41,413 nucleotides of DNA from a virus (taxonomy: Duplodnaviria > Heunggongvirae > Uroviricota > Caudoviricetes), in IMG/VR virus record IMGVR_UViG_2541047940_000004, positions 1 through 41,413 of that record; one strand, 5' to 3'. The translations under genes and the position numbers were made by a program. Position 1 is the first letter of the stretch; every line of letters starts with the position of its first letter. Positions 3,570 to 41,413 of this stretch are shown here, piece after piece. The notes below the pieces were generated by a model, which was given only the letters and a program-made list of their open reading frames with translations, did no database searches and was not told where the DNA came from.

Positions 3570-4538
3570 TCAGTAGTTATGTACTGAAGGAGGTAATTCT
3601 TTATTCTTAAGTCTTATCCATGCGGAAAGATTCGTTGGTCCGTCTGGCTCATTGATATCAACATCTCGTGTGTGGTTGATTAAAACGTCTCTCGCCATTC
3701 CGATAACATACGAGAATTCATGACCGTAGTCGTAGCATCTGCCGGAATAGTTCGATTGAATTTGTTTCAGCGCCGGATACAATTCGCGGAATAATGCCTG
3801 TGAGCGGTTGGCATAATCCCATAACCATACAAGGCTGTTTGCTTCTTTTGCAGAAAGCTCGTTTGCTTTCTTCTCTTGTTTGCCGATTAACTCGCCTTCA
3901 AGCACTACCCTGTGGATGTACTCTACGGCTTGCGGTATCTGAGATGCATCAAGCTCTTCAATACTTTCCACATTGAAACGCTGATGAATCATTGCATAAG
4001 CTTCTGGGTACATTAGATGCTTTTTGCTGACTAGCATATTTACAGCATCACGAAGCGGAGTCCTGTCATCAACAGATGTTTTCTTACGTGCATTTTCTGC
4101 CTTTCCCTTTGTCCAGTAGTCATGCAGTACAGTAAAGCATTCTTCCTGGTACTGAATCAGTTTATCACGGATGTCAGCACGAACTTTCTCAGGGTTGATG
4201 CTGATCAGCCATCCATTTAACTTCTTCAAAGGAAGGCATAGTAGCTTACGAAGCTTCCCATCAGCGGCAACCATGTTCATATGAACACAGTTGAATTTGC
4301 TAATCTGCTTCATGAGTTTTGTTTGCTGCGTTGACCAGCTCATTCCAAGGTTTTCAACGATTGGCTTCATCGCAACATATGCAACTCCGGCAGCCATGGC
4401 GGTGATAATTTGCTGACCGTTGAATGGTACATAAGAGGTGTTCACTGCTTCTAAAATTGCTATACTATTCATGTTGGTTTTTCTCCACGGATTTACTGAC
4501 AACCGAAGCCCTGACTGTTCCCGCAGTTGGGGCTTCAC
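3570..4538 (-). CDS. ant: Antirepressor Ant
   Basis: Position downstream of arc in the immI operon; ORF start at 4538 overlaps the stop of the upstream ORF (ATGA); alternative start at 4472 (MNSIAIL..., preceded by GGAG) gives 300 aa, the size I recall for P22 Ant. Confidence 0.8.
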
Positions 4539-4756
4539 TGTTTTTGTAAGTCACTGTAGTTATAAAGCCACTGACCACTCATTCTTGCTTTGATTGACTC
4601 TACTGAATCACGGCAAGGAATGATTCCACCTGACATCATTCTGATCTCCGTAAATTCACCGCTCCTTATCGACTCAATGCCATTAACGTTAACTAAAGAT
4701 TTACCTCTACCAAGTGCATTCTCATAGCCAATCTCATCAACCTCAATAAACCTCAT
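4535..4756 (-). CDS. Hypothetical 73-aa protein inserted between arc and ant
   Basis: ORF with ATGA overlap to the arc stop and to the ant alternative start; AGGGG-type RBS upstream; no P22 counterpart at this position as far as I recall. Confidence 0.5.
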
Positions 4757-4911
4757 ACCGTTATCCCCTCTCTCTTCAGGCTGTCCATCACTCGCTTATA
4801 AATCTCAGAGTTAACAGATCGCCCGTTCTCTTCAGCTACCTTGCGCACCAAATCCAATACTTCTTTAGGCCACCGCAAATTGAACTGCGGCATTTTGCTC
4901 ATTCCTTTCAT
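4753..4911 (-). CDS. arc: Arc repressor
   Basis: MKGMSKMPQFNLRWPKEVLDLVRKVAEENGRSVNSEIYKRVMDSL... matches P22 Arc from memory; true start at internal Met of the 73-aa track ORF (4753-4974). Confidence 0.9.
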   Translation of the reverse strand: MKGMSKMPQFNLRWPKEVLDLVRKVAEENGRSVNSEIYKRVMDSLKREGITV

Positions 4912-4927
4912 ATTTACCTCACAATAT

Positions 4928-4944
4928 AGGTCCACGGTGGACCT
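4928..4944. promoter_or_regulatory. Mnt operator (Omnt)
   Basis: Exact 17-bp palindrome AGGTCCACGGTGGACCT between divergent mnt and arc. Confidence 0.75.
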
Positions 4945-4953
4945 ATTGAGAAT

Positions 4954-4974
4954 ATAGTAGAGTGCTTCTATCAT
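4954..4974. promoter_or_regulatory. Arc operator (Oarc)
   Basis: 21-bp ATAGTAGAGTGCTTCTATCAT, the reverse complement of the P22 arc operator as I recall it. Confidence 0.75.
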
Positions 4975-5001
4975 GTCAATACACTAACTTGGGGTGATGG
5001 C

Positions 5002-5256
5002 ATGGCTAGAGACGATCCGCACTTTAACTTCCGTATGCCTTTGGAAGTAAGAGAAAAATTGAAATTAAGAGCAGAGGCTAACGGAAGGTCAATGAACTCT
5101 GAGTTATTACAAATCGTTCAGGATGCTCTCTCAAAGCCATCATCAATTGTAGGCTATCGAGACGAAGCTGAGCGAGTCGCGGATGAGCAATCTGACGTTG
5201 TTAAGAAGATGGTCTTTGAAACGCTGAAAAATATTTATAGCAAAAGTAAGTTATAG
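5002..5256 (+). CDS. mnt: Mnt repressor
   Basis: 84 aa MARDDPHFNFRMPLEVREKLKLRAEANGRSMNSELLQIVQDAL... matches P22 Mnt from memory; divergent from arc. Confidence 0.9.
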   Translation: MARDDPHFNFRMPLEVREKLKLRAEANGRSMNSELLQIVQDALSKPSSIVGYRDEAERVADEQSDVVKKMVFETLKNIYSKSKL

Positions 5257-5305
5257 GCTTATGACGTACAGTTAACCATATCGATATTGGCTCGCGTGAT
5301 GACAA

Positions 5306-6025
5306 ATGAAAAAAAGCAATGGACTCACATTAAAACTTGACGGAACCACCCCAGGCCAGCTGTCAATGGCTAAGTTGGTCAAGTATATGTCTGCTCTCGT
5401 AGATCTATACGGTTCTGCAGATTCTGTTCACTTCGACTGTGTAAGTGAAGGATCGGCTGACTTAAATGCATGGGTCGATAATGATATTTGTTATAACGCT
5501 GTCATAGCAAGGGCCTCTCTCTCAGCCAAAGAGAAATCACCCGCGTATCAAAAAATTGTTAATTTACTGGAACATGATGGTTTTTCAGCGAAACTACTCG
5601 GACGAAACCACTCAACCATTATCGCATTCCCGCGAGTAAAAAAGGAGCCAATCCCTTTACTCATAACAAAAACGTCAGAAGTTCAAGGAAGGCTATACAG
5701 TGTTGGCGGAAAAGACAACTCAATACCTGTGCGTATTGAGGGAGCCAACGGTGAAACATTCAAGTGCGAGGCAACCCCTGATTTGGCGGCAGCTCTTGGG
5801 TCCCATCTATTCAAATATATTAGGGTTAAAGGAGATGGGTGCTGGGAAAAAAAGAACAACAAATGGGAGCTAAAGAAACTAAAAATAACTTCATTTGTAT
5901 TGCTCAAAAAATCATCACTCAAGGATGCTATTAATGCTATCAAGCAAGTTCCTGGAGATCAGTGGTCCGAGGAACGCGATGTTGATTCAATCCTTAGGAC
6001 TCTGAGGAAGATAAATTGCGAGTAA
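5306..6025 (+). CDS. Hypothetical 239-aa protein, upstream partner of PIN-like gene
   Basis: Long ORF immediately after mnt; AT-rich by eye; stop overlaps the start of the next gene; no domain recognised by eye. Confidence 0.7.
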   Translation: MKKSNGLTLKLDGTTPGQLSMAKLVKYMSALVDLYGSADSVHFDCVSEGSADLNAWVDNDICYNAVIARASLSAKEKSPAYQKIVNLLEHDGFSAKLLGRNHSTIIAFPRVKKEPIPLLITKTSEVQGRLYSVGGKDNSIPVRIEGANGETFKCEATPDLAAALGSHLFKYIRVKGDGCWEKKNNKWELKKLKITSFVLLKKSSLKDAINAIKQVPGDQWSEERDVDSILRTLRKINCE

Positions 6026-39126: not shown

Positions 39127-39306
39127 ATGTCTTGTCCAAAATGCGGTTCTGGAAATATTGCAAAAGAAAAAACAATGCGTGGATGGTCTGATGATTATGT
39201 GTGCTGCGATTGCGGATACAACTACTCTAAAGACGCATTTGGAGAGCGTGGTAAAAACGAGTTTGTCAAAATTAATAAAGAACGCGAAGGCAACGAAAAA
39301 AGCTAA
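39127..39306 (+). CDS. Small zinc-ribbon protein (59 aa)
   Basis: GGAGG 7 nt upstream; MSCPKCGSGN...CCDCGYNY with two CxxC pairs. Confidence 0.5.
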   Translation: MSCPKCGSGNIAKEKTMRGWSDDYVCCDCGYNYSKDAFGERGKNEFVKINKEREGNEKS

Positions 39307-39371
39307 TTTATTTATTCATATATGAAAACAATGTAACCAATATTCGAATTGAAGAACTGAAAGAACACCAA

Positions 39372-39392
39372 GCCGCCTGATGGCGGTTTTTT
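39372..39392 (+). terminator. Rho-independent terminator
   Basis: CCGCC-tgat-GGCGG followed by TTTTTT. Confidence 0.55.
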
Positions 39393-39437
39393 ATTGCCTG
39401 ATTTGCAGGTTCGATTCCCTATTCGGAGATAGCACTC

Positions 39438-39638
39438 ATGCAACACGAACTACAACCTGATTCACTGGTTGATTTGAAATTCATCATGGCCGATACTGGC
39501 TTCGGTAAAACCTTCATCTACGACCGGATTAAGTCCGGCGACCTGCCAAAAGCCAAAGTTATCCACGGGCGAGCAAGATGGTTATATCGTGACCATTGTG
39601 AATTCAAAAATAAGCTCTTAAGCCGCGCCAATGGGTAA
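39438..39638 (+). CDS. AlpA-family excisionase / transcriptional regulator (Xis-like)
   Basis: 66 aa; small HTH protein directly beside the att core at the prophage end. Confidence 0.65.
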   Translation: MQHELQPDSLVDLKFIMADTGFGKTFIYDRIKSGDLPKAKVIHGRARWLYRDHCEFKNKLLSRANG

Positions 39639-39711
39639 AATAGCGGGTAAAATATTTTTCACATCTAAAAAACACCATTCCAATCAATCCCCTGCCGCGT
39701 CAAGTAGATGT

Positions 39712-39726
39712 CTGCAGGGGACACCA
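39712..39726 (+). repeat. attR core: 15-nt copy of the argW tRNA 3' end (CTGCAGGGGACACCA)
   Basis: Matches the 3' terminus of E. coli argW as recalled; upstream bases do not continue the tRNA, so this is a partial copy left by integration. Confidence 0.7.
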
Positions 39727-40165
39727 GATACCCTTCAAACGATATCTACCTTCACCCCGTAAAAGATAAGTTTGGCAGCACATTTGCCCTATCTACTCAT
39801 TTTTCCTGCAACAGGTTGAAATCTCAACACGGTCAGAAAACGCTGATGACTAAACAGCCCTGGGCTGGGCGATGTAACCATCACACACAATCCTGATCGC
39901 GAAATATGGCGTGACTTGATACTTCACTCCACAATGCTTTCCTTGATGAATTCGCAGGCCCGTGATACACGGGACAGGTCGCTGAATTACGACAATGCCC
40001 TGGAAATCAGCGAGCCGTGTATCCGGAGTACATTTGAGCGACTGTACCAGAACATGAATGAGGCGTTTGGATTAGGCGATTATTAGCAGGGCTAAGCATT
40101 TTGGTATTATTATTTTCCGGTTGAGGGATATAGAGCTATCGACAACAACCGGAAAAAGTTTACGT

Positions 40166-41413
40166 TTATATTGCTGAAGGTACTGGCGTTTCCATCACTA
40201 TTTGCTCACGTTTTTTACTCAGGAAGAAAATGCCAAATAGCAACATCAGGCAGACAATACCCGAAATTGCGAAAAAAACCGTCTGGTAGCCTGCGTGGTC
40301 AAAGAGTATCCCAGTCGGCGTTGAAAGCAGCACAATCCCCAACGAACTGGCAATTTGAAAACCAATCAGAAAGATCGTCGACGACAGGCGCTTATCAAAA
40401 TTTGCCACGCTGTATTTGAAGACGGATATGACACAAAGTGGAACCTCAATGGCATGTAACAGCTTCACTAATGAAATAATCCAGGGGTTAACGAATAGCG
40501 CGCAGGAAAGGATACGCAACGCCATAATCACAACACCGATAAGTAATGCATTTTTTGGCCCTACCCGATTCACAAAGAAAGGAATAATCGCCATGCACAG
40601 CGCTTCGAGTACCACCTGGAATGAGTTGAGATAACCATACAGGCGCGTTCCTACATCGTGGGATTCGAATAAACCTGCATAAAAGACAGGAAAGAGTTGT
40701 TGATCAAAAATGTTATAGAAAGACCACGTCCCCACAATAAATATGACGAAAACCCAGAAGTTTCGATCCTTGAAAACTGCGATAAAATCCTCTTTTTTTA
40801 CCCCTCCCACATCCGCCGCTACGCACTGGTGTTCCTGCTCTTTAAAACGCATGTTGATCATCATAAATACAGCGCCAAATAGAGAGACCAACCAGAAGTT
40901 GATATGGGGACTGATACTAAAAAATATGCCAGCAAAGAATGCGCCAATAGCATAGCCAAAAGATCCCCAGGCGCGCGCTGTTCCATATTCGAAATGAAAA
41001 TTTCGCGCCATTTTTTCGGTGAAGCTGTCAAGCAAACCGCATCCCGCCAGATACCCCAGACCAAAAAAGAGCGCCCCCAGAATTAAACCTACAGAAAAAT
41101 TGCTTTGCAGTAACGGTTCATAAACGTAAATCATAAACGGTCCGGTCAAGACCAAGATGAAACTCATACACCAGATGAGCGGTTTCTTCAGACCGAGTTT
41201 ATCCTGAACGATGCCGTAGAACATCATAAATAGAATGCTGGTAAACTGGTTGACCGAATAAAGTGTACCTAATTCCGTCCCTGTCAACCCTAGATGTCCT
41301 TTCAGCCAAATAGCGTATAATGACCACCACAGCGACCAGGAAATAAAAAAGAGAAATGAGTAACTGGATGCAAAACGATAGTACGCATTTCTGAATGGAA
41401 TATTCAGTGCCAT
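40166..41413 (-). CDS. cscB: LacY-family oligosaccharide:H+ symporter, CscB-like sucrose permease (host gene)
   Basis: 415 aa with about 12 hydrophobic segments; matches E. coli CscB as recalled (MALNIPFRNAYYRFASSYSFLFF...); the csc locus is known to sit at argW. Confidence 0.8.
   Translation of the reverse strand: MALNIPFRNAYYRFASSYSFLFFISWSLWWSLYAIWLKGHLGLTGTELGTLYSVNQFTSILFMMFYGIVQDKLGLKKPLIWCMSFILVLTGPFMIYVYEPLLQSNFSVGLILGALFFGLGYLAGCGLLDSFTEKMARNFHFEYGTARAWGSFGYAIGAFFAGIFFSISPHINFWLVSLFGAVFMMINMRFKEQEHQCVAADVGGVKKEDFIAVFKDRNFWVFVIFIVGTWSFYNIFDQQLFPVFYAGLFESHDVGTRLYGYLNSFQVVLEALCMAIIPFFVNRVGPKNALLIGVVIMALRILSCALFVNPWIISLVKLLHAIEVPLCVISVFKYSVANFDKRLSSTIFLIGFQIASSLGIVLLSTPTGILFDHAGYQTVFFAISGIVCLMLLFGIFFLSKKREQIVMETPVPSAI

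Follow-up and report, generated by a model that had tools for sequence, protein, structure and literature searches.

The DNA between the right end of a prophage and cscB in the stretch analyzed here (the 41,413-nucleotide virus record IMGVR_UViG_2541047940_000004, hereafter the window) is the native argW–cscB intergenic sequence of the csc haplotype of Escherichia coli (439 bp, positions 39727-40165), and the same sequence is present in prophage-free strains. We consider it probable that this native junction holds a dead DUF4942 island scar together with a stem-loop that forms the 3′ element of the csc module and acts at the RNA level. The two features, the DUF4942 fragment and the stem-loop, are unrelated to each other. 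Homology, decay, single-copy status, linkage to cscB, and conservation well beyond the neutral expectation are each directly supported.

The argW–cscB junction and its setting

In the prophage-free, csc-positive strain A25, the order of elements is argW, the sequence of 39727-40165, cscB-cscK (minus strand), cscA, cscR, a truncated dsdX, and dsdA. In the window, a KplE1-like prophage parts argW from the 439-bp junction. The attR core, which aligns with the 3′ end of the annotated tRNA-Arg of A25, marks the right end of this KplE1/CPS-53-like prophage and directly precedes the junction (Table 1). A preliminary description of this DNA had placed the region between attR and cscB, and this setting was borne out by the 15-nt copy of argW and by the positions of torI and cscB. 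A second copy of the argW 3′ end was not found within the window. Among 5,426 complete E. coli genomes, 2,624 carried at least 80% of the junction. Of these junction-bearing genomes, about 135 were at least 99% identical to the window and most of the others about 93%. The window match of K-12-type genomes stopped at 39726.

Table 1 Features at the right end of the window and in the argW–cscB junction
Feature	Position	Strand	Remarks
torI, excisionase-like gene of KplE1/CPS-53-type prophages	39438-39638		just before the attR core
attR core	39712-39726	+	copy of the last 15 nt of tRNA-Arg(CCU) argW, CTGCAGGGGACACCA
Spacer, 151 bp	39727-39877	.	csc haplotype only; neutral rate
Internal DUF4942 gene fragment (pseudogene scrap), ~200 bp	39878-40078 (approx.)	+	Pfam, blastp, DNA identity
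46-aa ORF, MNSQARDTRDRSLNYDNALEISEPCIRSTFERLYQNMNEAFGLGDY	39946-40083, TAG stop 40084-40086	+	chance-open tail of the DUF4942 fragment
Short filler	40079-40097	.	separates DUF4942 homology from Citrobacter cscB-flank homology
cscB 3′ flank common to the Citrobacter amalonaticus group	40098-40165	-	homology
Two-tier stem-loop	40113-40156	-	inverted-repeat arms and RNA fold
Outer stem, 11 bp, perfect, TTTTCCGGTTG / CAACCGGAAAA	40113-40123 with 40146-40156		22 nt between arms
Inner stem, 4 bp, GAUA/UAUC	40127-40130 with 40137-40140		apical loop variable
cscB, sucrose:H+ symporter, 415 aa	40166-41413	-	RefSeq: 'cscB: sucrose MFS transporter'

The variable argW–csc/argW–dsdCXA island of E. coli has reportedly been treated by Jahreis et al. 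2002 and by Moritz & Welch 2006. Its locus and gene order agree with those seen here, and we found no difference in kind. Passages of two papers on this locus describe the DNA next to argW as a hot spot of recombination, occupied alternately by csc and dsdCXA, and argW itself as an integration site of lambdoid and KplE1-type prophages, as it is in the window (PMC11251922; PMC3032704). The locus and its variability are already known, and the junction as a whole is ordinary E. coli argW–csc sequence. In the available passages of the literature on the argW–csc island, we found no description of the DUF4942 scrap or of the hairpin 3′ of cscB.

The junction also matched records of other kinds. Its matches among plasmids (PLSDB CP061244.1, NZ_OL790696.1, NZ_CP141089.1, and CP137936.1; 0.37-4.9 Mb) appear to be chromosomal. 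Four GenBank 'phage' records (ON470608.1, ON470622.1, ON470589.1, and ON470594.1) hold the whole argW–cscB host junction, part of it labelled 'A-kinase anchor protein 5', and are therefore assemblies of a prophage plus host DNA.

Several observations concern the prophage side of the boundary. Beside the divergent csc locus of E. coli SCPM-O-B-8794 (L008, 4245-4786; a separate GTDB species), the torI product is 100% identical to the TorI of the window despite the divergence of csc, so that the prophage is either far younger than the csc haplotype or has been exchanged independently of it. A tandem direct repeat, GGGTAAAATA, occurs in two copies 12 nt apart at 39633-39654, where it overlaps the torI stop at a distance of about 60 nt from the attR core that follows. 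Possibly, a recombination protein of the prophage att region binds there. The only match in an Rfam scan of 39200-40400 was a weak one to the enterobacterial sRNA STnc130 (39361-39488, minus strand; 24.3 bits, gathering score 55, E=0.48); it spans the region upstream of torI and the torI start and is probably due to chance.

A DUF4942 gene fragment and its history

The preliminary description had noted a possible 46-aa ORF in the junction and suggested that it might be a gene remnant. The ORF exists, displaced by one base from where it had been placed (39946-40086 rather than 39947-40087), and its frame is open farther upstream, from a TTG at 39916 (56 aa). An ATG ORF of at least 46 aa was present in 299 of 500 dinucleotide-preserving shuffles of 39727-40165; its occurrence is therefore not beyond chance, and the ORF as such is uninformative. 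The suggestion of a gene remnant proved well founded, for the ORF is contained in an internal piece of a DUF4942 gene. The translation of 39880-40083 matches Pfam PF13708 (E=3.3e-10; 40.4 bits, cut-off 25) at profile positions 3-62 of 190, and blastp aligned it at 64% identity (E=2e-25) with residues 85-151 of a full-length 281-aa paralog whose DUF4942 domain spans residues 87-275. Because the match is limited to residues 85-151 of 281, the fragment is an internal piece with both gene ends missing. Its DNA shares 74-78% identity with full-length paralogs across about 39868-40078. A complete DUF4942 domain (~190 positions) in an intact gene of about 281 aa is absent at 39878-40078; NCBIfam holds no model for DUF4942.

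We examined the frame in 20 distinct haplotypes taken from genomes and metagenomes. Premature stops, at two independent codons, interrupt it in 13 of the 20, one haplotype carries an 18-bp deletion, and the variable sites are spread over the first, second, and third codon positions as 11, 11, and 10. Neither these codon positions nor the stops and indels gave any sign of purifying selection on the frame. The related junction of L008 has the same architecture but is more eroded. Its cscB is 94% identical to that of the window in amino acids and 73% identical at four-fold sites; about 80 bp of the left spacer remain, followed by a shorter DUF4942 piece with a 1-nt deletion, a 14-nt deletion, and a frameshift, and all remaining sequence down to the hairpin is deleted.

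RefSeq annotation implies another reading, in which a functional small protein with a truncated DUF4942 domain would be made from the ORF (46-68 aa). PGAP does annotate a CDS in many genomes, and in the haplotype of the window the frame is open for 68 codons. The annotation is inconsistent, however: the calls made here are a 'DUF4942 domain-containing protein' of 68, 60, 54, or 50 aa, or no CDS at all, and the 68-aa model requires an ATC start. With only profile positions 3-62 of the 190-position domain, an ORF of a size expected by chance, the stops, deletion, and even codon-position spread seen among the haplotypes, and the frameshift and deletions of L008, we regard a functional protein as very improbable. 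The RefSeq/PGAP call is a homology-driven annotation of a pseudogene fragment. The 68-aa RefSeq version, WP_224922710.1, corresponds to window positions 39880-40086 (locus L001, 6169-6375) and begins at the ATC codon. The outcome that the preliminary description had named as refuting its reading, namely that the region aligns to known intergenic sequence with no conserved ORF, did occur insofar as the ORF is taken as a coding sequence. Judged by these patterns, the DUF4942 fragment is old, non-coding, neutrally drifting, and without function.

The 151-bp spacer to the left of the fragment varies at a similar rate. Among the 20 haplotypes, 39 of its 151 sites are variable (0.26, vs 0.25 in the DUF4942 fragment). 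No homologs of the spacer were found outside csc-positive E. coli DNA in searches that covered plasmids and phages as well as E. coli genomes and every locus compared here, and it matched nothing in Pfam or Rfam. A possible identity with the spacer between argW and the integrase in strain F8111-1SC3 was rejected, as the alignment shows that the two are unrelated.

Full-length DUF4942 genes offer a candidate source for the fragment. In SLK172 and in a B strain, such a gene is the last one of CP4-type islands, following cbtA, DUF5983, and DUF957. These genes, at the distal end of islands of the CP4/P4-integrase type, are homologous to the fragment in the window (64% in protein, 74-78% in DNA). 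In contrast to them, the window keeps only residues 85-151 of 281, with no start codon and with a frame that is interrupted in most haplotypes, and the neighboring cbtA, DUF5983, and DUF957 are all missing. The fragment reads away from argW, the orientation that the distal end of an island would have if argW were its integration site. Directly after argW, F8111-1SC3 carries an N-terminal piece of a P4-type integrase (Arm-DNA-bind_3); ISEc46 comes next, and the hairpin and cscB then follow, starting at window position 40087. The insertion sequence abuts CAGGGCTAAGC with its right end, and the ISEc46 junction falls at window position 40086/40087. In this strain (L005, 2957-5000), ISEc46 is a member of the IS200/IS605 family with tnpA and tnpB, and the integrase fragment and ISEc46 together replace everything up to 26 nt before the hairpin.

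In a simple history, argW and csc would once have been parted by a CP4/P4-type island that was later removed by deletions, with the DUF4942 scrap left behind. We infer from homology and orientation that the fragment is most simply the deletion scar of a former argW island; we found no genome in which these flanks adjoin an intact argW island.

Structure and conservation of the cscB 3′ stem-loop

The other feature named in the preliminary description was an 11-bp inverted repeat downstream of cscB, regarded as a possible terminator or REP-like element. The repeat is there and is perfect, although it occupies 40113-40156 rather than 40112-40155, one base away. Perfect 11-bp repeats with a spacer of at most 50 nt occurred in 1 of 500 dinucleotide shuffles, and the repeat is therefore not a product of chance. 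On the cscB strand, the hairpin begins about 10 nt past the cscB stop (9 nt from the stop codon). Folding gave -17.3 kcal/mol (z=-4.6) for the minus-strand RNA and -16.8 kcal/mol (z=-3.6) for the plus-strand RNA. Only 4 of the 11 pairs of the stem are G-C, with a U-run 5′ and an A-run 3′ of the core CCGGUUG/CAACCGG. The hairpin is followed by UAAUAAUA on the cscB strand and by AGUUUACG on the other, and a U-tract is present on neither. A scan for promoter and terminator consensus sequences did not call the hairpin, and the number of sites in the region was no higher than in shuffles; likewise, an Rfam covariance-model scan of 39200-40400 gave no hit within 39727-40165 at E<=1. One of the sigma-70-like matches lies at 40083-40110 (+; TTAGCA, 16 nt, TATTAT, with TG), upstream of the hairpin and directed into cscB antisense; sigma-70-like matches in the region are as frequent as shuffles lead one to expect, and the -35 part of this one is not conserved in Citrobacter.

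The repeat is an imperfect intergenic palindrome lying between convergent transcription units, where the REP/BIME elements of E. coli are usually found, and this likeness speaks for a dispersed repeat of the REP/BIME or MITE type. The distribution of the element contradicts it. The 79 bp of 40087-40165 are confined to csc-positive genomes (2,641 of 5,426), with a median of one place in each. Scanning metagenomes for both arms with any spacer of 15-32 nt returned at least 120 stretches; among the matches listed, 15 had a similar loop, all of them next to an E. coli-type cscB, and about 105 were chance palindromes with unrelated loops. Furthermore, the hairpin is unlike the REP consensus, has no target-site duplication, and gave no Rfam or repeat match in the window. 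Unlike REP/BIME elements, it is single-copy, csc-linked, and not dispersed. The suggestion of a REP-like element is thus refuted by copy number, with one copy per genome, only in csc-positive genomes, and, among the metagenome matches listed, only beside cscB; we regard a dispersed repeat as almost certainly the wrong reading.

Scanning one genome per species with CscB, we found the same element after cscB in three species of the Citrobacter amalonaticus group and in Escherichia L008. The arms are identical at 22 of 22 positions between E. coli and the three Citrobacter species as well as L008, while the identity of E. coli cscB at four-fold sites is 47-56% with the Citrobacter species and 73% with L008; under neutrality, such invariant arms have a probability of P ~6e-8 to 9e-4. 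The stretch that runs from the cscB stop codon through the hairpin is 86-90% identical. Substitutions and a 3-nt indel are concentrated in the apical loop, and the inner GAUA/UAUC stem is kept in 10 of 10 sequences. Overall, all 15 pairs are kept in 99.3% of cells, 13 pairs never vary, and none shows changes on both sides; as the arms are invariant, no pair covaries. A single E. coli haplotype (GPEC1446) carries two uncompensated changes in the arms.

The hairpin stays beside cscB in four different downstream contexts: the scar of E. coli, the deletion of L008, which ends exactly at the hairpin arm, the ISEc46 junction 26 nt away, and a chemoreceptor gene in Citrobacter. There, a 370-aa MCP gene (HAMP, MCPsignal; at ~4300-5420 in loci L009-L011) starts 8-9 nt after the 3′ arm (..CCGGAAA..). 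E. coli has ATACCAAAAT (40098-40107, minus strand) where Citrobacter has ATGCCAAAAT, the start of this gene, and homology ends at about 40098. By this alignment, ATACCAAAAT is a relic of the first ten bases of the MCP gene, with its ATG changed to ATA, and the breakpoint of the Escherichia csc module falls inside that gene. In Escherichia sp. MOD1-EC7003 (L007, ~4259-4300), the sequence diverges inside the loop (..GATAGCTCG TAACCGG CTCATTT..), so that the stem is shortened to 7 bp, one pair being G-U, and the 3′ flank differs; the end of the contig follows shortly.

More distant relatives of cscB (83-61% identical; Pluralibacter, Raoultella, C. freundii, and a metagenomic contig) have 3′ flanks that are not homologous, and for this reason they offer no comparison for covariation. 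Each of them nevertheless has a hairpin at the same position, and some of these are canonical terminators: in Raoultella, a G+C-rich stem is followed by UUUUUCUUU, and Pluralibacter has a bidirectional terminator. The distribution of the hairpin indicates that it belongs to the csc module, and to cscB, rather than to the scar.

Role of the stem-loop and implications

Position and conservation make an RNA-level role, as the stem-loop at the 3′ end of the cscKB mRNA, the most likely one. The hairpin would form the end of the cscKB transcript, at the end of the operon and convergent with argW, where it could act as a barrier to 3′ exonucleases, as a pause or termination signal, or as both. It resembles the intrinsic terminators that follow the cscB relatives of Raoultella and Pluralibacter in lying at the same position near the permease stop and in forming a stable RNA hairpin, and it shares with intrinsic terminators in general a stable hairpin directly after the stop of the operon's last gene. 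However, it lacks their compact, G+C-rich stem with a short loop and a following U-tract, and it differs from the Raoultella and Pluralibacter terminators in the A-U-rich base of its stem, its reversed U/A layout, and the inner stem within the 22-nt gap, with no sequence homology to either. With no U-tract, reversed U and A runs, 22 nt between the arms, and no call in the scan, it is not a canonical intrinsic terminator. Its position, its conservation into Citrobacter, and the canonical terminators of relatives at the same spot make it plausible that it terminates transcription all the same. Termination would then probably be Rho-assisted, a help proposed here in view of the missing U-tract. 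On the cscB strand, the next 150 nt have more C than G (+ strand GC skew +0.24), and such C-over-G sequence lends weak support to Rho assistance. A literature search for transcript termination at the hairpin returned only synthetic terminators used with cscB, and we found no paper describing the hairpin. It is ordinary for the last gene of an operon to be followed by a conserved stem-loop; the mildly unusual point is that a hairpin with no U-tract is frozen across genera.

Invariant arms that do not covary fit a sequence-specific DNA or protein site as well as they fit an RNA structure. We therefore weighed whether the inverted repeat is a site in DNA, either a protein operator or a recombination or boundary site of csc, rather than an RNA hairpin. 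The arms are invariant between Escherichia and Citrobacter with no compensatory change, and in four lineages rearrangement junctions fall at an arm or within about 25 nt of it, although selection that keeps an element 3′ of cscB would also give junctions beside the hairpin. The 22-nt gap between the arms, the conserved inner stem, and the length-variable apical loop resemble a folded strand and not a dimer operator, the other end of the csc module has no matching repeat, and the arms are unlike the CscR operator GTTAACGTTAAC of the cscA-cscK region. On balance, a DNA site seems unlikely. CscR, a LacI-family regulator, has as its operator a 12-bp palindrome that occurs twice between cscA and cscK (PMC11251922). 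The more specific proposal that the hairpin is itself a CscR operator was rejected, as the arms are unrelated to this palindrome and lie 22 nt apart.

The neighboring chemoreceptor gene of Citrobacter suggests a different origin, in which the hairpin arose in a Citrobacter-like ancestor to control the MCP gene, by masking its ribosome-binding region or by attenuating read-through, and the E. coli copy is a relic. The close spacing of the 3′ arm and the MCP ATG in all three Citrobacter species, and the retention of ATACCAAAAT in place of ATGCCAAAAT in E. coli, accord with such an origin. Against it, the arms match at 22 of 22 positions between E. coli and L008, neither of which has the MCP gene and whose four-fold sites are 73% identical (P ~9e-4), and the deletion of L008 stops exactly at the arm. 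We thus hold control of the MCP gene to be a decidedly unlikely explanation. That the arms are intact in Escherichia lacking the MCP gene suggests a continued selection tied to cscB itself.

Alongside an mRNA 3′-end stem-loop, we also considered that the hairpin might be a sequence-specific cis-regulatory element of csc, that is, a 3′-UTR structure recognized by a protein or RNase that sets the stability of the cscKB mRNA, or a boundary or recombination site. This is a minor possibility. If true, it would explain why neither the arms nor the 5′ half of the loop have changed between Escherichia and Citrobacter, whose synonymous sites approach saturation, and why rearrangements stop at the edge of the hairpin.

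For annotation, these results call for a clean-up. The DUF4942 scrap is already annotated in RefSeq, misleadingly, and the 'DUF4942 domain-containing protein' CDS found in many E. coli genomes is a neutral pseudogene scrap and not a gene. For the history of the locus, argW would once have borne a CP4/P4-type island beside csc, and the csc module of Escherichia would have been cut from a Citrobacter-like context ten bases into a chemoreceptor gene. The hairpin is the only non-coding part of the junction that shows constraint, and those who transfer the cscKB operon for sucrose engineering in E. coli W-type strains would do well to keep it or test it.
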